Shown here: piece by piece, positions 6,269-54,915 of the stretch
Layout of the letters: the number at the start of each line of letters is the position of its first letter
Position numbering within the stretch: the first letter of the stretch is position 1
IMG/VR virus record: IMGVR_UViG_3300017700_000880
Location: 1 to 63,208 of that record
Strand: one strand, 5' to 3'
DNA length: 63,208 nucleotides
Source of the DNA: a virus
Taxonomy: Duplodnaviria > Caudoviricetes
Position numbers and translations under genes: made by a program
Notes under the pieces: generated by a model
Databases searched by the model: none
Seen by the model: the letters and a program-made list of their open reading frames with translations, nothing else
What the model was told of the DNA's origin: nothing

Positions 6269-6441
6269 TGGGATGGGGTCATGGGTGGTTCGCCGGCTGG
6301 AGAACGGCCGGCAAGGATGAGCGCAAGGCGCGCATCCGCTCCAGCTTCCCGCGAATCCCCAAGCCGGCGCGCACCGTTCGACACGCGCCGGCACGGCAAC
6401 CGACATTTGATTATCGTCTGCGCAAGTGGAGGCACGGCTGA
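6268..6441 (+). CDS. 57-aa basic hypothetical protein (below the ORF-track cutoff)
   Basis: TGATG overlaps at both ends. Confidence 0.5.
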   Translation: MGWGHGWFAGWRTAGKDERKARIRSSFPRIPKPARTVRHAPARQPTFDYRLRKWRHG

Positions 6442-7226
6442 TGCGGTACATGGGCTCCAAGGGGCGATTCGCCAAAGCGTTGGTCCCTGAGATTATGCGC
6501 TGGCACCATGAGACGATGCCATACGTGGAGCCGTTCGTCGGCGGCGGGAATATGATTTGCAAGATTCCCGCCGTGCCGGCCGGCCGCACCGGATACGATG
6601 CGAATAAATACGTGGTCGCCCTCCTTGAGGCCGTGCGCGACGGATACCATCCGCCTGAGCACATCTCCGAGGAAATTTACAACGACGTCCGCGACAACCC
6701 CGACTCCTTTAGCCCCGCGCTGGTCGGCTTCGTCGGCACCGCGTGCACCTTCGGGTCCAAGTGGTTCGGCGGATACGCACGCACCTCGCGCACCGGAGAG
6801 CGCGTGCGGGACTATTGCGCTGAAGGCCGCGCCGCGCTATTGAAGCAAGCGCCGTCCCTGTACGGCATTCGCTTCAAGCATTCCGATTACAAGGACATCC
6901 AATTTGTTCTCCCGTCGCTCATCTATTGCGACCCGCCGTATGCCGACACCGATGCGCGGTACCAAAAGGGATTCGACTCCGCCGCGTTCTGGCGATGGGC
7001 TGATGACCTTGTCGAGGCCGGGCATCGCGTGTACGTCTCCGAATACGAAGCGCCTGACCACTGGCGCTGCATCTGGAACAAGCCGTTGAAAGTGGTCATG
7101 AACGGCACAAACTCAAAGCACGCAACCGAGCGGCTTTACACCCGAGGGAAATCATTCGATGAAGTACATGGGCAGCAAGGCGAAGCACGCCAACGACATT
7201 CTCAAGATTGTACTTGCGGCGCGTAA
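6441..7226 (+). CDS. Dam/D12-class N6-adenine DNA methyltransferase 1
   Basis: YMGSK, YVEPFVGGG, YCDPPY, VSEY. Confidence 0.9.
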   Translation: MRYMGSKGRFAKALVPEIMRWHHETMPYVEPFVGGGNMICKIPAVPAGRTGYDANKYVVALLEAVRDGYHPPEHISEEIYNDVRDNPDSFSPALVGFVGTACTFGSKWFGGYARTSRTGERVRDYCAEGRAALLKQAPSLYGIRFKHSDYKDIQFVLPSLIYCDPPYADTDARYQKGFDSAAFWRWADDLVEAGHRVYVSEYEAPDHWRCIWNKPLKVVMNGTNSKHATERLYTRGKSFDEVHGQQGEARQRHSQDCTCGA

Positions 7227-8130
7227 GCCGGGGCAATACTACGTCGAGCCGTTCGTTGGCGGTGCCAACGTGATGAGCCATGTGCCGACCGTCGAGGCCG
7301 AGCACGGCTACGCCACCGGCCCGCGCCTCGGGTGCGATATCAACCGGTACATGGTCGCGTTGCACACGGCGCTCGCCGCCGGCTGGCAACCGCCGCGCGA
7401 CCTGAAGCCGCAAGAGTACCGGCTCATCAAGGCGCGGCCGGATGACTTCCCGCCTGAACTCGTGGCCTTTGTGGCGACCGGCGTCACGTTCGGCTCCATG
7501 TGGTTCGGCGAATACGTCAAGGATGGCCCCGGCGAGAACCGGTGCCGGCAGTCGGCCGACTCATGCTTGCGTGATGCGCCCGGCCTCACTGGCGCGGAGT
7601 TTCGTCATTGGGAATTCAACAGCGACGACATGAGCGCGTTCCTGAAAGCGCACAAGCCGGCGTTGGTCTATTGCGACCCGCCGTATGTCAATACGACGAG
7701 TTATGCCGGCGCGAAGAAGACGATCAAGGTCGGCGATTCGCTCGGCGCGAATACGTGGAAGGCGAGCAAGTTCTGGAAATGGGCCGACGCGCTCGTCGAC
7801 GAAGGGCACAGCGTTTTCGTCAGCGAGTACACCGGCCCGTCGACCGATGTGTACGCCAGCCTCCCGCAATCGGACGCGGAGAAGGCCACGCGCGCCGCCG
7901 CCGCCGCGTTCCAAGCATCGACCGAGTACAGCGCCGCCGGTATGGAGGAGCACTTCGCGCGCATCAAATCGCACGAGGCCGAGCGCCGCGCCGCCGCCGA
8001 GGCCATGTGCGCGCGATGGGAGGTGGTGTGGTCGAAGGAAGTGACCGCCGACTTCAGCGCCAGCCGCGAGGCCGGCGTCAAGACCGGCAAGGTCGAAGTC
8101 GAAAAGCTGTTTCACCGAAAGGCCGCTTAA
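7159..8130 (+). CDS. Dam/D12-class N6-adenine DNA methyltransferase 2
   Basis: YMGSK, YVEPFVGGA, YCDPPY, VSEY; Ala-rich insertion. Confidence 0.9.
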   Translation: MKYMGSKAKHANDILKIVLAARKPGQYYVEPFVGGANVMSHVPTVEAEHGYATGPRLGCDINRYMVALHTALAAGWQPPRDLKPQEYRLIKARPDDFPPELVAFVATGVTFGSMWFGEYVKDGPGENRCRQSADSCLRDAPGLTGAEFRHWEFNSDDMSAFLKAHKPALVYCDPPYVNTTSYAGAKKTIKVGDSLGANTWKASKFWKWADALVDEGHSVFVSEYTGPSTDVYASLPQSDAEKATRAAAAAFQASTEYSAAGMEEHFARIKSHEAERRAAAEAMCARWEVVWSKEVTADFSASREAGVKTGKVEVEKLFHRKAA

Positions 8131-8131
8131 C

Positions 8132-9385
8132 ATGGAATGGTCACCGCAACAGGCCGCCGCGCTTGACAAGGTTCAGGCGTGGCTCGACAACCCCGACGCC
8201 GAGCAAGTGTTCAAGCTGTTCGGATACGCCGGCACCGGCAAGTCGACGCTGGCGCAGGAGATTGCCAAGATGGACTCGGCGGGTTACGTGCAATTCGCCA
8301 GCTTTACCGGCAAGGCGGCCGTCGTCATGCGCCGCAAGGGTTGCGAGAACGCGCGCACGTTGCACGGCCTCATCTACCGGTCGCACGAGAAGGCCAAGAC
8401 CGAATTGATGCGGCTGGAGGCGCTGCTCGAAACCGCCAAGGCGCACAGTCAGCCCATCGGCGACATCACGCGCGCCATCGAAGCGGAGAAGGACAACGTG
8501 CGCCAGCCGGGTTTTACCAAAAAGCCGGACGCGCTCCAGCTATGGGAAGGCTCGTTCGAAGACGGCGACCGCCGCCCCACGCACCGCATCGACACCTTCT
8601 GCATCGATGAATGCTCAATGGTGGACGAGCGCCTCGGCGGCGACTTGCTTTCCTTCGGTGCCAAGACGCTGGTCCTCGGCGACCCCGCACAGCTTCCGCC
8701 CGTCATGGGTGGCGGTTTCTTCACGAACGGCAAGCCGGACGTGCTGTTGACGGAGATTCACCGGCAAGCGGCCGACAACCCCATCATCCAAATGGCCAGC
8801 CGTATCCGTCAAGGCGACAACCTCGACCTCGGCGAGTACGGCGAGTCGCGCGTGGCGTACACGAGCGAACTCAGCCCCGGCACATGGCTTCAGGCCGACC
8901 AAATCCTGTGCGGGAAGAACATCACGCGCCAGCAAATCAACGGCCGGGTGCGCCAGCTACGCGGCTTTGAGGGGTACCTTCCATGCCCCGGCGAGAAGCT
9001 GGTCTGCCTCCGCAACTCGCGCGAGGAGGAATTGCTCAATGGCTCGCTTTGGGAGTGCCTTGAGTCCATCGATGCGCCGGACGGCGACACCTTTCGGGTG
9101 CGCCTGAAGTCGCTCGACGCTGTTGCCGGCGAGGAGCGTGAGATGACCACGCTCGTCCACAAGGCCAACTTTATGGGTGTGAAGCTGGACGACTACTTCG
9201 ACCGGCTGCGCGCCAACGAATTCGACTTCGGCTATGCGCTGACGGTGCACAAGGCGCAAGGCTCGCAATGGGACAACGTCGTCATCATGGACGAATGGAA
9301 TCGCCAAGACTCGCGCCAGCAATGGCTTTACACGGCGGTCACCCGAGCAGCAGAGCGCGTCACCGTGGCGCGGAGGGGCGGATGA
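8132..9385 (+). CDS. RecD/Dda-like SF1B helicase
   Basis: GYAGTGKS, DECSM, GDPAQLPPV, TVHKAQGSQW, YTAVTRA. Confidence 0.92.
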   Translation: MEWSPQQAAALDKVQAWLDNPDAEQVFKLFGYAGTGKSTLAQEIAKMDSAGYVQFASFTGKAAVVMRRKGCENARTLHGLIYRSHEKAKTELMRLEALLETAKAHSQPIGDITRAIEAEKDNVRQPGFTKKPDALQLWEGSFEDGDRRPTHRIDTFCIDECSMVDERLGGDLLSFGAKTLVLGDPAQLPPVMGGGFFTNGKPDVLLTEIHRQAADNPIIQMASRIRQGDNLDLGEYGESRVAYTSELSPGTWLQADQILCGKNITRQQINGRVRQLRGFEGYLPCPGEKLVCLRNSREEELLNGSLWECLESIDAPDGDTFRVRLKSLDAVAGEEREMTTLVHKANFMGVKLDDYFDRLRANEFDFGYALTVHKAQGSQWDNVVIMDEWNRQDSRQQWLYTAVTRAAERVTVARRGG

Positions 9386-49988: not shown

Positions 49989-51041
49989 ATGACAACTCCC
50001 TTCGTCATGGTTGCGAACGGCGGGGCATCAGCCACGCAGCGCTCCGCCTATTCGCCGGACGGCTCAAGCTGGACGACGGCAACGATGCCGACCTTTTCGA
50101 ATGGCTCCGGTCAAACGTGGACCGATGTTGCGTTCTCGCCTCCGCTTGGTTTGTTCGTTGCCATCGGCTCCGGCGGTTCGAACAATAATAACGCGCTGGC
50201 CACGTCGCCGGACGGTATCACTTGGACCGGACGCTCCATCCCGCAGGCGAATACGTGGCGCTCGATTTGTTGGGCCGGCGGCACCATCAACCTCTTCGTC
50301 GCCGTTTCGGAAGACGGTACGAATCGCGTTATGACTTCGCCGGACGGCACCACTTGGACGGTGCAAACGGCTGCGAGCGCCTCCGCGTGGAAGTCGGTGG
50401 CGTACAGCGAAGACCTCGACATGCTGTGCGCGGTCGGTTCTTCGAACGTCATCATGACGTCGACCAACGCGACCTCGTGGACTTCGCAAACCGGCCCGGC
50501 TTCGAGCAAAAACTGGAACTCGGTCGTATGGGCAAGCGGAGCGATTCAAAAGTTTGTCGCCATCGCCTCGGGTGCCGGCGGTTCGAACGATGAAATGTAT
50601 TCCTCCAACGGCACATCGTGGACGCAGCAAACGGTCGGAGCGGGCCTCGGTTATTCGTGGGTGCATATTGCGTACAGCGTTGACCTCGACATGCTCCTCG
50701 TCGTTGGAGGCAACACTGGCGTCTATAACCGCTCGACCAACGCCACCTCGTGGACGGAAGTGACGAGCGGCGTTGGCAGCAATGCGTTCCAAGGCTCGGC
50801 GTGGTCCGAAGACCTTGCCCTGTGGTGTATGGTCGCCAACGGCTCGCTCTATACGTCGCCGGATGGTTCGACTTGGACGTCGCGCACGGTACCGAGCGGC
50901 TCGTGGAATAAAGTCGTGGCCGGCGTTACCACGACGACCCCGCTTCCCATCACCGCAACGAATCATGATACCGGCCTGTCCATGACGGTCTCCCTCGGGC
51001 AACCGCGCTCGAAACAGCCCGTCATCATTACAGTAAACTAG
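49989..51041 (+). CDS. Asp-box beta-propeller, probable receptor-binding protein
   Basis: Seven SxD/NxxxW repeats, e.g. SPDGITW, SPDGTTW, SSNGTSW. Confidence 0.8.
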   Translation: MTTPFVMVANGGASATQRSAYSPDGSSWTTATMPTFSNGSGQTWTDVAFSPPLGLFVAIGSGGSNNNNALATSPDGITWTGRSIPQANTWRSICWAGGTINLFVAVSEDGTNRVMTSPDGTTWTVQTAASASAWKSVAYSEDLDMLCAVGSSNVIMTSTNATSWTSQTGPASSKNWNSVVWASGAIQKFVAIASGAGGSNDEMYSSNGTSWTQQTVGAGLGYSWVHIAYSVDLDMLLVVGGNTGVYNRSTNATSWTEVTSGVGSNAFQGSAWSEDLALWCMVANGSLYTSPDGSTWTSRTVPSGSWNKVVAGVTTTTPLPITATNHDTGLSMTVSLGQPRSKQPVIITVN

Positions 51042-51043
51042 GC

Positions 51044-51072
51044 TTGCCGCGTATCCTGCGCTGTGCTAGAAC
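51044..51072 (+). promoter_or_regulatory. Sigma70-like promoter of the lysis cassette
   Basis: TTGCCG-N17-TAGAAC with TG extension. Confidence 0.55.
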
Positions 51073-51104
51073 GGGGCACACGCTCACCCGAGGGAGATTG
51101 AATC

Positions 51105-51956
51105 ATGGCCGCCTCCAGTTACGCGGAATTCCTCAAGCGCCTCATCTACAATTACGAGGGAACGAAATACACGGACGGCGTCACCCCTTATGACCCCGGC
51201 GGCCCGACTCGCTACGGTATCACGCTCGGCGTGGCGCGCCAGTATTGGAAGTCGAACGCCACCGCGCAGGACGTGAAGGACATGCCCATCGGCATCGCCA
51301 TCGGAATCTATAAGGCCAAGTATTGGGACGCTCTTTGGGGCGACAAGCTTCCGGTCGGTACCGATGGCGTGACCGTCGACTACGGCGTCAACAGCGGCAT
51401 CAGCCGCGCCGGCAAGGTGCTTCGCCGCGTGCTCGGTCTGTCCGACAAAAAGTGGCAGGTGGATGCCGAGGTGCTCGCCGCGCTGAGCAAGCGCGACCAG
51501 AAGAAGGTCATCGACGCCATCAGCGACGAGCGCCTGCGCTTCATGCAGGGCCTCAAGATTTGGCCGACTTACAAAAACGGATGGACGCGCCGCGTGAACG
51601 GCGAGCGCGCTCTGGCCAAGGCGATGGTCGACAAGATGCCGGCCGAGGCCGTGGTCATCGCCGCCGGCATGAATGAATTGCCGGCGCTGCCGAAGGCCAT
51701 GGTCCCCGAACCGAAGACCACAAAGAACGTGGTCAAGGGCTCCGTACCGGCCGCCGCCGCCGAAGAGGCAGCGCGTGACGGCGGCAATTGGTTCGACTGG
51801 ATTGTCGCGCACCCGCTGGAGTCCGCCGTTTGCGCGGCGCTCATCGTGGCGGCCGTGTTCGCCATCATCACACTCATCAACCGCCGCTGGCAGGCCAAGC
51901 AAGACGCGCCGACGCCGGGCATCACTGTGGTCCCCGAGTTGCCGGCCACCGCGTAA
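51105..51956 (+). CDS. Endolysin, glycoside hydrolase family 108, with C-terminal TM helix
   Basis: EG...DPGGPTRYGIT, YWD, D.GVNSG, GWTRRV. Confidence 0.88.
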   Translation: MAASSYAEFLKRLIYNYEGTKYTDGVTPYDPGGPTRYGITLGVARQYWKSNATAQDVKDMPIGIAIGIYKAKYWDALWGDKLPVGTDGVTVDYGVNSGISRAGKVLRRVLGLSDKKWQVDAEVLAALSKRDQKKVIDAISDERLRFMQGLKIWPTYKNGWTRRVNGERALAKAMVDKMPAEAVVIAAGMNELPALPKAMVPEPKTTKNVVKGSVPAAAAEEAARDGGNWFDWIVAHPLESAVCAALIVAAVFAIITLINRRWQAKQDAPTPGITVVPELPATA

Positions 51957-51966
51957 GGAGGATACC

Positions 51967-52491
51967 ATGTACCAGCTTTTGCTCCATGCCTTGCTGTGGT
52001 CGCTCATCGTTGGCACGACCGCCGGCTTCTATTGGTTCTGGATTCGACCCATCCTGCGCATCAACCCCTCGTTCAAGGAGTTTTACGAGGAGTCGGATAC
52101 GCGCATCGAAGCCTTGCGCCGCAAATTCGCCGGCCTCAAGCAAAAGCTGACCACGGCGTTCTTCTTCCTGATCGGCATCATCGTCAGCGGTTACGACTTC
52201 TTCCTCACGATGGCACAGGCGTCCGGCTACGGCCTGAACGACTTGAGCACGCTCACCGACAAGGTGCCGCCGGCCGCGTGGCCGCTCATCGGCATGGCGG
52301 TGCTCGCGCTGATTCAGTATCTGCGCAACTTGAACGACGCGCGGACCAATGCTGAAATCGTGGTCGCCGCCGCAACTGGCGAAGTGAAGGAGACCACCAT
52401 CGAAGCGGTGGCCGCCAAGTCGCCGGAAGTGCTGGCCGAGCAGGTCGGCATCATCACGCCGGTCAGCGCCGTCACCGGGGAGCGCGTGTAA
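51967..52491 (+). CDS. Membrane protein with three hydrophobic segments (holin/antiholin candidate)
   Basis: RBS AAGGAGG; lies in the lysis cassette. Confidence 0.6.
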   Translation: MYQLLLHALLWSLIVGTTAGFYWFWIRPILRINPSFKEFYEESDTRIEALRRKFAGLKQKLTTAFFFLIGIIVSGYDFFLTMAQASGYGLNDLSTLTDKVPPAAWPLIGMAVLALIQYLRNLNDARTNAEIVVAAATGEVKETTIEAVAAKSPEVLAEQVGIITPVSAVTGERV

Positions 52492-52922
52492 TGTGGAAAG
52501 TCCTCGGCGGATTCCTTACGGGCGGGCCTATCGGAGCGGTCGCCGGCTTTGTCGGCGACCTGCTCGCGCCCGTGAACGGCATCATCAAGTCGCTGGCCGA
52601 TGCGAAGGTGCAACTCAAAAACGCCGAGAACGATGAGCAGCGCATCTTCCAGCAAGAGCGCATCAATGCGCTGAACGCCAAGATGAACCTCCAGCTAGGC
52701 GAGGCCCCGTTCACGCGGCTGAACGCCATGACGCGCACGGCCGCCGCCGCCGGCCCCATCATTGTCCTGCTCAAGATTTTCGTTTGGGACAAGGCCCTCG
52801 GTCAGTGGACCGGCGGTTACACCGACCCGCTTGGCGAACAGCTTTGGCAGGTCATCATGGTCGTCCTCGGCTTCTATTTCGTGTCCGATATGGCGGCGCG
52901 CGTGTTCGGGAAAACCAAATGA
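52491..52922 (+). CDS. Holin (GTA 3TM-holin-like)
   Basis: TM segments; VWDK....TDPL...W...VLGFYF. Confidence 0.65.
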   Translation: MWKVLGGFLTGGPIGAVAGFVGDLLAPVNGIIKSLADAKVQLKNAENDEQRIFQQERINALNAKMNLQLGEAPFTRLNAMTRTAAAAGPIIVLLKIFVWDKALGQWTGGYTDPLGEQLWQVIMVVLGFYFVSDMAARVFGKTK

Positions 52923-53470
52923 CCGACTCCAACTATCGCTTGTCGGCGACTCGCTATTACGCCGACTTCGTCACCGTGCCGCTGGCCATCCTTGCCGCGT
53001 GCATCTTCGGCAACCAACTGGCGTCCGAGGCATTCGTGTCGTCCGTGATGGCCGGCGTGCTGACTTGGTCGCTGGCCGAATACTGGATTCACCGTTCCCT
53101 CTTCCACGGCGTGGAGCCGTTCAAGGCCGAGCACCGAGTGCACCACATCCGGCCGCCCGACTACATCGGCGCGTCCCCGTGGCTTACGGCGGCCGTGATA
53201 GCGGTCGGCGGCCCGGTCGCTTTCGCCTCCCTCGGGTCAACGGTCGGCGCGGGATTCTTCGCCGGTATCCTGACGGGCTATTTCGCTTACATCTTTGTGC
53301 ACGACCGATTCCATCATGCCCGAGGGCTTGGCCCTGTGCTGGCATGGCTCCATGCACGGCACGAGTACCATCACCGCCGCGAGCGGGTGAATTTCGGCGT
53401 GACAAGCCCGTTGTGGGACTTGGCCTTCGGCACCTATGCCCGGCCGCACGCGCTGGAAAGGCGTCGTTAA
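52919..53470 (+). CDS. Fatty-acid hydroxylase / sterol desaturase family protein
   Basis: EYWIHRSLFH, HRVHH, HDRFHH, HEYHH, NFGVTSPLWDLAFGT; TM helices. Confidence 0.92.
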   Translation: MTDSNYRLSATRYYADFVTVPLAILAACIFGNQLASEAFVSSVMAGVLTWSLAEYWIHRSLFHGVEPFKAEHRVHHIRPPDYIGASPWLTAAVIAVGGPVAFASLGSTVGAGFFAGILTGYFAYIFVHDRFHHARGLGPVLAWLHARHEYHHRRERVNFGVTSPLWDLAFGTYARPHALERRR

Positions 53471-53559
53471 CCATACGATCAGCCCGGCCACCCCGTTAAC
53501 GATTTGTTAAGACCTTGCCGGTACGTTGGCCCCATCGTAACCAGCCAAGGACGACCGCC
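53467..53559 (+). promoter_or_regulatory. CtrA-box promoter cassette 1
   Basis: TTAACCAT at 53467; TTAA-CGATTTG-TTAA at 53496-53510. Confidence 0.8.
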
Positions 53560-54036
53560 ATGTTGAGATTCCAGCTTACCCGCAGCCCCGCCGGCCACAT
53601 CACTCACGCCGTTGCCATTGACGAGACGGTGCCGTGGACGCGGGACCAGAACTTCGAAAACCGCAACGACTGGAAAACCTTCGAGGAAGCCGTGCGCGTT
53701 GCCATGGCGCTGAACGCGGCCGAGGCCGCCAAGGTGCCGGCCGAGCGCACCGTGTACATCCCGACCGATGCCGGCGCGCACGTTTCGCCGCGCTATGATG
53801 TGGAAGCCCTCCCCAAGGTCGGCGACGACGTGAGCTACGGCTTCAACGGCGACTCGTACCCGTGCGGCAAAATCACCTCCATCAGCAAAGGCCCCGACTA
53901 CCGCCGCATCGTTGCTAAGAACGACGCCGGCACCGAGTGCGTGTTCTGGCGCTTGCGGAAGACCGGTAGCTGGAAATATCAACAGACTTGGTCGCTGATG
54001 AAGGGCGTGCACAACGAGCGCAACCCCTCGTTTTAA
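53560..54036 (+). CDS. Hypothetical, probably early, protein
   Basis: Follows cassette 1; RBS AAGGA. Confidence 0.75.
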   Translation: MLRFQLTRSPAGHITHAVAIDETVPWTRDQNFENRNDWKTFEEAVRVAMALNAAEAAKVPAERTVYIPTDAGAHVSPRYDVEALPKVGDDVSYGFNGDSYPCGKITSISKGPDYRRIVAKNDAGTECVFWRLRKTGSWKYQQTWSLMKGVHNERNPSF

Positions 54037-54149
54037 CCCCCTGTTAACCATTGAACACAAGGCCCGGCCGGCGCGCCGGGCCTTAACCTTTTGTTAAGAC
54101 CTGCCCTGTACGTTGGCCATATCGAAACCAGCGCCACGGAGAACCGCAA
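54033..54149 (+). promoter_or_regulatory. CtrA-box promoter cassette 2 (two full boxes around a hairpin)
   Basis: TTAA-N7-TTAA at 54033 and 54083; inverted repeat 54059-54084. Confidence 0.85.
54078..54131 (+). repeat. 54-bp direct repeat copy 1
   Basis: Identical to 54846-54899. Confidence 0.9.
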
Positions 54150-54814: not shown

Positions 54815-54915
54815 CCGAAAATTAACCCTCGGGTCAACAGCCCGAGGGCCTTAACCTTTTGTTAAGACCTGCCCTGTACGTTGGCCATATCGAAACCAGT
54901 GCCCCGGAGAACGCC
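54811..54915 (+). promoter_or_regulatory. CtrA-box promoter cassette 3
   Basis: GTAA-N7-TTAAC at 54811, hairpin 54826-54848, TTAA-N7-TTAA at 54851. Confidence 0.85.
54846..54899 (+). repeat. 54-bp direct repeat copy 2
   Basis: Identical to 54078-54131. Confidence 0.9.

Follow-up and report, generated by a model that had tools for sequence, protein, structure and literature searches.

Association of an FA2H-like hydroxylase gene with phage lysis genes hints, from sequence, at a lipid-based lysis helper

The gene at positions 52919–53470 of the tailed-phage genome IMGVR_UViG_3300017700_000880 (IMG/VR; all 63,208 bp were analysed, and this whole stretch is called the window) is predicted to encode a short fatty-acid hydroxylase resembling FA2H, and it directly follows the lysis genes. 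Genes of the same subfamily were found within ~1 kb of lysis genes, on the same strand, in 13 distinct phage or prophage loci besides the window, the hosts being mostly Bradyrhizobium or alphaproteobacterial. The association hints at a lipid-based lysis helper. The reading that we favour, tentatively and at slightly less than an even chance, is a late, holin-coupled lipid hydroxylase of the inner membrane that would tune the behaviour of the envelope at lysis.

The hydroxylase and its place in the lysis block

52919..53470, + strand: Scs7p/FA2H-like short fatty-acid hydroxylase, 183 residues (PF04116, His boxes, profile and fold matches to Scs7p)

The open reading frame (ORF) runs from an ATG at 52919–52921 to a TAA at 53468–53470. 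A single Pfam family, FA_hydroxylase (PF04116), matched the product over residues 44–172 (E = 2.1e-19; 70.7 bits against a curated cut-off of 31; model positions 2–132, or 131 of 132), and there is no cytochrome b5 domain. Four His boxes (HRSLFH, residues 58–63; HRVHH, 72–76; HDRFHH, 128–133; HEYHH, 148–152) are followed by the tail NFGVTSPLWDLAFGT at residues 158–172, and boxes and tail sit in invariant columns in alignments of 19 and 30 relatives. The original prediction had taken the gene to be an intact hydroxylase from its four boxes and tail, and the Pfam match and the invariant columns bear this out. The GC content at third codon positions is 0.80, compared with a genome mean of 0.79 ± 0.05 (61 ORFs of at least 100 residues). 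The near relatives form a subfamily of ~165–200 residues with an N-terminal YYxDFxxxP motif.

The Protein Data Bank (PDB) was searched with a profile of 30 relatives, and the sole match was yeast Scs7p (PDB entry 4zr1; E = 9.7e-24; residues 20–177), with the His boxes aligned. An AlphaFold2 model of the hydroxylase (pLDDT 94.8, pTM 0.90) has a four-helix fold with long helices at residues 16–31, 36–62, 87–105 and 107–133. Scs7p was also the sole significant structure found with Foldseek (E = 7.5e-6, TMq 0.73, 28–30% structure-based identity), a nearest match that discriminates weakly, few members of the superfamily having solved structures. In a protein atlas the nearest entries were bacterial 'sterol desaturase family' clusters and a eukaryotic ceramide very-long-chain fatty-acid hydroxylase. 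A representative library of 1.84 billion proteins yielded 1,867 relatives at E ≤ 1e-3, 478 at E ≤ 1e-10 and seven at E ≤ 1e-30, the best with 53% identity (52% by BLASTP). No PHROGs family and no NCBIfam model (at E ≤ 1) matched the protein, and the viral structures in BFVD gave weak matches (best E = 0.0096, TMq ~0.5), none of them from a phage. No electron-donor gene adjoining the hydroxylase was found in the window from the ORF list and Pfam. A possible lipoprotein signal, LAAC at residues 25–28, was rejected, as it falls in helix 1 and is unconserved. The gene very probably encodes a membrane hydroxylase of FA2H/Scs7p type, catalytically competent, with a di-metal centre in a four-helix fold and no cytochrome b5 domain; the cap that bears the His cluster is predicted to face the cytosol.

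The remaining features of the block are as follows.

51105..51956, + strand: endolysin, 283 residues, with an N-terminal GH108 muramidase domain (PF05838, E = 6.8e-16) and a C-terminal hydrophobic helix (residues 240–258)
51967..52491, + strand: membrane protein T1, 174 residues, first of two holin-type candidates (hydrophobic segment 64–82)
52491..52922, + strand: holin-like protein H1, 143 residues (sub-threshold match to PF11351, GTA_holin_3TM; hydrophobic segments 14–32 and 118–136)
53504..53531, + strand: first of three copies of the 28-nt motif TTGTTAAGACCTKSCNNGTACGTTGGCC, at the boundary of the lysis block (match to a degenerate pattern)

The spacings from endolysin through T1 and H1 to hydroxylase are 10, −1 and −4 nt. 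The endolysin ATG at 51105 is preceded by GGGAGA; the T1 ATG at 51967 lies 10 nt past the endolysin stop and 5 nt after a strong Shine–Dalgarno sequence, AAGGAGGA; the H1 ATG overlaps the T1 TAA by 1 nt; and the hydroxylase ATG overlaps the H1 stop (TGA at 52920–52922) in an ATGA, as had been predicted. No terminator-like hairpin was found directly 3' of the hydroxylase. A gap of 89 nt follows if the next gene begins at ATG 53560 (the ORF list opens that frame at TTG 53515). The motif TTGTTAAGACCTKSCNNGTACGTTGGCC occurs at 53504–53531, 54091–54118 and 54859–54886, in each case intergenic, on the + strand and before a small + strand gene; its degenerate pattern has three exact matches in the genome and none in 100 shuffles, and it probably serves a group of small genes as a phage-specific promoter or operator. 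The second copy is preceded by a strong terminator-like hairpin (54059–54084). Because the gap and the motif begin after it, the hydroxylase is taken as the last gene of a tightly packed late block, which makes its proposed place at the end of a lysis operon a reasonable one. From this arrangement, transcription of the gene along with the late lysis genes and translational coupling to the holin-like gene are both considered likely.

The coupling to a holin that was part of the original prediction therefore stands as regards the overlap, whereas the identity of the partner is less secure. H1 scored 18.1 bits against PF11351 (E = 0.0041; threshold 24.8), and only one of nine members of the H1 family attains even such a sub-threshold score, so that the name 'holin', a label inferred from size, hydrophobic segments and position, is weaker than first assumed. 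The H1 family adjoins endolysins in ten other hydroxylase-bearing loci; H1 itself had no match in IMG/VR. T1 had no match in Pfam, PHROGs or NCBIfam, and its N-terminus is weakly similar to a protein of 120–122 residues from Bradyrhizobium prophage cassettes (E = 0.002 in a small database). The endolysin also matches phrog_315, 'endolysin' (E = 1.2e-33), and NCBIfam holin_dep_muram at E = 4.9e-8, under the cut-off of that model. Its C-terminal helix (hydropathy 2.78) is unlike the N-terminal signal-anchor of signal-arrest-release (SAR) endolysins; a similar helix was seen by eye on a fragment upstream of the hydroxylase in contig L100.

The phage record has direct terminal repeats, is rated 100% complete in IMG/VR and has a GC content of ~0.62 along its whole length. 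Replication genes lie at 0.2–18 kb and structural genes at 19–51 kb, and PHROG matches include a helicase, a primase, the large terminase subunit and portal, head-morphogenesis, minor tail and tape-measure proteins, which together describe a predicted siphovirus-type phage. Neither a tyrosine integrase (PF00589) nor a serine recombinase (PF00239) was found in the complete genome. Since the same searches matched 14 of 14 and 12 of 14 control genomes, respectively, the phage is probably virulent, or at least non-integrating. A blastn search of GenBank phages with positions 51000–54100 gave one match of 113 bp, confined to the gene downstream of the hydroxylase.

Recurrence in other lysis cassettes and descent

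In all, 205 loci were examined: 15 from IMG/VR, 80 kept out of 267 found in species-representative genomes, 80 kept out of 468 found in metagenomes and a further 30 from 201 genomes of the genus Bradyrhizobium, 36 of which matched at E ≤ 1e-20. An IMG/VR candidate (L002) was dropped as a fragment, its match of 26 residues having come from a single-protein scan. Most of the loci are single chromosomal copies set among unrelated genes (Pseudomonas, Cypionkella, Steroidobacteraceae, Bacteroidota and several Bradyrhizobium clades). Linkage to lysis genes was detected using seed hidden Markov models (HMMs) and inspection, and the count of 13 is a lower bound. The linked loci carry the following genes in the endolysin position.

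L003 and L004: endolysins of phrog_181 (E = 2.2e-49 and 6e-24, respectively)
L020 and L103: endolysins homologous to phrog_181-type proteins
L101: GH108 endolysin, a homologue of that of the window
L199: phrog_880 amidase (E = 2.1e-45)
L006, L008 (identical to L037; Bradyrhizobium sp. YR681) and L018 (an alphaproteobacterial metagenome-assembled genome): family E3
L019 (a prophage on the chromosome of B. oligotrophicum S58), L116, L134 and L178: family E3

At least three annotated endolysin families are thus represented. Hydroxylase and lysis genes are co-directional in all 14 linked loci (window included), and start and stop codons overlap those of neighbours in the window and in L178. Four gene orders were seen (FAH, hydroxylase; TM, transmembrane protein): endolysin-T1-H1-FAH, endolysin-FAH-T1-H1, endolysin-TM-FAH-H1 and FAH-endolysin-TM-H1. 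Between L019 and L020 the T1 and H1 genes are 98–99% identical and the hydroxylases 86% identical, and the endolysins are different. Three short contigs (L098, L100 and L102) have fragments of cassette genes beside the hydroxylase, as judged by eye only, and L098 also has a homologue of the window gene at 244–1923. The original objection that the gene might be a one-off capture does not hold, since the subfamily recurs in or against lysis cassettes at 13 further loci and evolves under purifying selection.

L020 is the 49,884-bp 'plasmid unnamed1' of B. oligotrophicum S58; it carries phage lysis genes and looks like an episomal phage or phage-plasmid. Its hydroxylase had no match at 1e-10 among 72,556 plasmids. 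The hydroxylases of the window, L020 and L004 had no tblastn match among 50,697 GenBank phage records; both collections may omit the window's own record. The window endolysin matched seven distant cassettes in IMG/VR (33–36% identity), and a hydroxylase was seen in none of these.

Family E3 comprises proteins of ~250–330 residues with a conserved HERE...QGDPW...GRGPF core, which fill the endolysin position in the majority of lysis cassettes of Bradyrhizobium prophages. Members are found as follows.

L006, 7073–7930: E3
L019, 5204–5953: E3
L018, 4862–5611: E3
L178, 482–1474: E3

The membrane-protein gene T1 of L019 was found in 27 of the 201 Bradyrhizobium-genus genomes, at 30 loci (L215–L244), and E3 is present in 26 of these 30 cassettes. 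E3 is regarded as a candidate endolysin because of this presence and of slot equivalence in L019 and L020; the function is putative. The predicted E3 structure is confident only over residues 1–200 (mean pLDDT 72.5), and a fold search gave lytic-transglycosylase and g-type-lysozyme matches only, all non-significant (best E = 2.5). A merger of E3 with the phrog_181-type endolysins by iterative HMM was withdrawn (hhalign probability 0.6%).

The phage copies of the hydroxylase have diverged to 35–50% identity with their His ligands intact: ten ligands are kept in 20 of 20 phage or prophage copies, and an eleventh in 18 of the 20. Ratios of nonsynonymous to synonymous substitution rates (dN/dS) were 0.24 (L006/L037), 0.30 (L004/L103) and 0.43 (L019/L020) for the three least saturated pairs, more distant pairs being saturated. 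The strict ligands and the full Scs7p-like fold point to retained metal chemistry and argue against a non-catalytic membrane partner that would bind and regulate the holin in the manner of an antiholin, the His cluster being vestigial. The translational coupling to the holin-like gene fits such a partner, and so does the holin-like size of the membrane protein; where the hydroxylase stands relative to the holin-like gene varies, however, and we rate the chance of such a role as very slight.

In a FastTree phylogeny of 202 rows the window falls in a clade of 15 leaves (support 0.858), of which 13 (the window and 12 others) are lysis-linked, ten by HMM or PHROG matches and three by fragments read by eye. 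The other two leaves are L099, with a flank too short to judge, and L070, which is chromosomal and on a long branch. L004/L103, L199 and L134 were placed elsewhere. The tree omits L002, the duplicates L008, L129 and L179 (of L037, L007 and L020, respectively) and sequences of fewer than 140 residues. An approximately unbiased (AU) test did not reject a single clade of all 19 phage and prophage rows (p-AU 0.13). When the 17 lysis-linked rows were grouped without L099 and L005, which nest among them, the grouping was rejected (p-AU 7e-10); this grouping was judged to be unfair. As the clade that includes the nested rows was not rejected, several independent captures are not claimed, and the pattern is read as a single old phage lineage, or a small number of them, retained within lysis cassettes that were extensively reshuffled. 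We hold it to be likely that a diverged phage-borne hydroxylase lineage has been kept in alphaproteobacterial, largely Bradyrhizobium, lysis cassettes while these were reshuffled around it.

Three host genomes have, besides the prophage copies, only a distant paralogue (open frame of ~280–330 residues; E of about 5e-10 to 4e-7), so that the phage would bring a new activity to these hosts. An in-frame stop interrupts five of 43 hydroxylase-profile matches in Bradyrhizobium-genus genomes (G070, G036, G062, G110 and G108), which suggests decaying copies in some of these genomes.

Possible roles at lysis

In the reading that we favour, the enzyme would reside in the inner membrane with its His cluster toward the cytoplasm, take electrons from a host donor and hydroxylate the host's membrane lipids on their acyl chains. 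The position would most likely be C-2 of a chain in amide or ester linkage, by analogy with the action of Scs7p on ceramide. Ceramide itself, phospholipid, ornithine lipid and precursors of lipid A are candidate substrates. Made together with holin and endolysin, it would cause altered lipid to accumulate late in the latent period, and the altered packing of the bilayer might make hole formation, envelope rupture or both better timed or more complete. A stronger form, which we consider unlikely, makes lipid hydroxylation a fourth lysis function: late 2-hydroxylated lipid, being tightly hydrogen-bonded, would either promote lateral clustering ('rafting') of the GTA-type holin, which sets the lysis clock, or weaken the unusual outer membrane of the alphaproteobacterial host and thereby let a spanin-less phage complete lysis.

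Several observations weigh against a role in lysis. 2-Hydroxylation usually stabilises membranes and is not obviously favourable to lysis, and a structure-based identity of 28–30% to Scs7p does not carry over substrate specificity. Half of the 'endolysins' in the linked loci are E3, which has no match in Pfam, PHROGs, NCBIfam or the PDB. If all phage copies go back to one capture, the linkage is partly inheritance rather than repeated selection, and the tail-fibre/lysis junction may be a hot spot for cargo. Of the 30 T1 loci, 29 have H1 and 26 have E3, while the hydroxylase is present in two, both in strain S58 and corresponding to L019 and L020. Viral copies without lysis linkage also exist (L005, L007, L009, L010, L177 and the distant L011–L017 group). 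Some carriers have candidate spanins of their own: L100 and L199 also encode a lipobox lipoprotein, and L003 a weak Rz-like protein (phrog_312, E = 0.0085).

Among the unlinked copies, that of L005 lies between recombinase-like and terminase-like genes. L009 (IMGVR_UViG_3300046557_000219, 6298–8522) comes from a phage related to that of the window: seven of its genes have matches there, terminase and portal homologues included, and five of the seven share 46–56% identity. The L009 hydroxylase (35% identity, long branch) stands in divergent orientation beside a homologue of 244–1923, with no lysis gene seen nearby, and its tail motif NFGV...W is altered. Six of the distant group (L011–L014, L016 and L017; IMG/VR, GC 0.38–0.41) are related low-GC phage contigs whose hydroxylase (25–27% identity) lies in a conserved block with a GroEL-like protein of 525 residues (in five of six contigs), a glutaredoxin-like protein and a protein of 849 residues.

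The T1 cassettes without hydroxylase have no substitute gene in its place. Its presence in two of 30 makes the gene an optional insertion between endolysin and membrane genes; it is accessory and dispensable for this cassette type, neither a core part nor a general replacement for spanins. That it is no general spanin substitute also follows from the carriers with lipoprotein or spanin-like genes. In the window genome PF03245 (spanin) had no match, and lipobox scans of six frames, which were heuristic and not a spanin-specific tool, found only antisense ORFs and helix 1 of the hydroxylase. The protein has neither a lipobox signal of its own nor a periplasmic coiled coil, and the absence of a recognisable spanin does not make it a spanin substitute. 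No spanin was found in 91 of 677 surveyed phages of Gram-negative hosts, about one in seven (PMC6139136, Table 1). The proposal that the gene occupies the spanin slot was not upheld: this is a positional coincidence of one genome, and in other loci the hydroxylase stands before the endolysin, between the endolysin and the holin-like genes, or between two membrane proteins.

Accessory status accords with passenger cargo (a moron), in which a host lipid enzyme landed once in a tolerated site and gives at most a host benefit unrelated to release. The single origin that the AU test did not reject agrees with this, as do the 28 of 30 homologous Bradyrhizobium cassettes without hydroxylase, the frequency of the subfamily as a chromosomal singleton (Pseudomonas, Cypionkella, Steroidobacteraceae, Bacteroidota and other Bradyrhizobium clades) and the in-frame stops in five of 43 matches. 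Nevertheless, all His ligands have been kept at 35–50% identity with dN/dS of 0.24–0.43, and the linkage has outlasted four gene orders and, in L019/L020, an exchange of endolysins. A typical moron is a self-contained unit with a promoter or terminator of its own, frequently on the other strand, that a temperate phage carries and a lysogen expresses. The hydroxylase gene, in contrast, has codons that overlap those of neighbours (in the window and L178), shares the strand of the lysis genes in all 14 linked loci and is found here in a genome without integrase or resolvase. In L006, L019, L020 and L178 membrane and holin-like genes lie directly downstream of the hydroxylase on the same strand. 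Lysogenic conversion is disfavoured, since the window has no recombinase and constitutive expression would read into such downstream holin-like genes. Simple cargo is in our view quite unlikely. Acyltransferase-3-like genes (O-antigen acetylase type, by eye) adjoin endolysins on the opposite strand at L101 (1946–3013, −) and L218 (2637–3345, +).

More serious, although still rather unlikely, is late remodelling of envelope lipids for an end other than lysis. The enzymology and the late co-expression would be the same as in the reading that we favour, the hydroxylated product being lipid A or ornithine lipid bound for the outer membrane. It would reduce adsorption of superinfecting phages, or of the phage's own progeny, to the dying cell, debris and vesicles; alternatively, it would preserve a tight, energised membrane up to the moment at which the holin fires. 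In favour of this account, 2-hydroxylation is a stabilising surface modification of both ornithine lipids and lipid A. Accessory status (two of 30 cassettes) would suit a fitness-tuning trait, and the L101 cassette lies beside a gene that resembles, by eye, an acyltransferase-3 surface-modification gene. The hydroxylations of ornithine lipids are reviewed in PMC12971839. Little time would, on the other hand, be left for transit from inner to outer membrane if the enzyme appears no earlier than the lysis proteins. Genes for exclusion are usually expressed early or in lysogens, whereas the hydroxylase sits in late cassettes with holin-like genes downstream, and the window phage has no integrase.

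The same enzyme class might instead act on an isoprenoid lipid (hopanoid, carotenoid, quinone or the undecaprenyl carrier) and so perturb envelope synthesis or membrane order. PF04116, according to PMC12971839, also takes in carotene hydroxylases and sterol desaturases. Four metagenomic chromosomal relatives (L161, L165, L168 and L170) lie directly upstream of a dxs-like gene, as judged by eye from the N-terminal sequence, a linkage that may hint at a role of that chromosomal clade in isoprenoid-lipid chemistry. These relatives have 31–36% identity to the hydroxylase, and L165 and L170 are also downstream of an ArgE-like fragment. The dxs-linked copies fall, however, in a clade other than that of the phage copies, the acyl 2-hydroxylase Scs7p is the best and sole significant profile and fold match, and the NCBIfam search was blank; an isoprenoid substrate is improbable.

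Should the enzyme indeed tune the envelope at lysis, an oxygen-dependent lipid hydroxylase in these cassettes would be a new chemistry for phage lysis or late envelope remodelling, and would point to a property of membrane lipids that is important for the rupture of alphaproteobacterial envelopes. Were hydroxylation a fourth lysis function, a redox lipid enzyme would be a factor in lysis timing or envelope rupture. As about one in seven phages of Gram-negative hosts has no recognisable spanin, a new accessory factor would be relevant to an open question. Cultivable, non-pathogenic Bradyrhizobium strains harbour carrier prophages, which makes the system easy to test. Even as mere cargo, the gene defines an unannotated phage gene family, alongside E3, a putative endolysin family often met with in prophages of Bradyrhizobium.

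Relation to known systems

The original prediction knew of no description of lysis assisted by a lipid enzyme. This agrees with the literature, in which a full-text search gave, among the matches listed, no description of a phage fatty acid hydroxylase or sterol desaturase with lysis genes, and with the absence of a PHROGs family and of a GenBank phage match. A study of 16 Bradyrhizobium phages contains none of the terms hydroxylase, desaturase, holin, endolysin and spanin.

The nearest enzymes by architecture are Scs7p and FA2H (PDB entries 4zr0 and 4zr1), which have the His-box arrangement and the four-helix di-metal fold in common with the window hydroxylase. They are eukaryotic, whereas the window protein is of bacterial or phage origin and has no b5 domain. 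In PMC10002949, FA2H-type enzymes of animals, fungi and protists are described as having an N-terminal cytochrome b5, and plant FAH1/2 and bacterial forms as lacking it. The myxobacterial FA2H orthologues (Ring et al., 2009, cited by PMC10002949) are b5-less, His-motif fatty acid 2-hydroxylases akin to eukaryotic FA2H; they are chromosomal and tied to sphingolipid synthesis, and are likened to the window protein here by description rather than by sequence. Deltaproteobacterial relatives of the hydroxylase (39–43% identity) carry a C-terminal extension that is absent from the phage clade. OlsE of Rhizobium tropici and Agrobacterium, which like the carotene hydroxylase CrtZ is another bacterial member of the superfamily, is compared by description only; it hydroxylates the ornithine headgroup at C4.

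Among viruses, Emiliania huxleyi virus encodes a sphingolipid pathway, and viral lipids have been linked to host death. The lipid-modifying enzymes of this virus and the fatty-acid hydroxylases of giant viruses belong to the same or a related superfamily, but those are viruses of eukaryotes. Lysis cassettes of phages are commonly described as holin, endolysin and spanin with a few lineage-specific extras, cationic 'disruptin' peptides among them. In phages of Gram-negative hosts, the position behind holin and endolysin is usually taken by spanins (Rz/Rz1 and u-spanins). The closest parallels in spirit are LysB, a mycolyl-arabinogalactan esterase of mycobacteriophages (PMC5707550), and LysZ, a membrane protein with which corynephages and mycobacteriophages get past the lipomannan/lipoarabinomannan barrier (PMC13123898). 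Both are accessories of lysis cassettes and help lysis to completion by acting on lipids or lipoglycans of the envelope. LysB is a hydrolase and LysZ an uncharacterised membrane protein, whereas the window gene is predicted to encode an O2-dependent di-metal hydroxylase; and LysB and LysZ act in Corynebacteriales hosts with proven phenotypes, whereas a role of the hydroxylase at lysis is a prediction.

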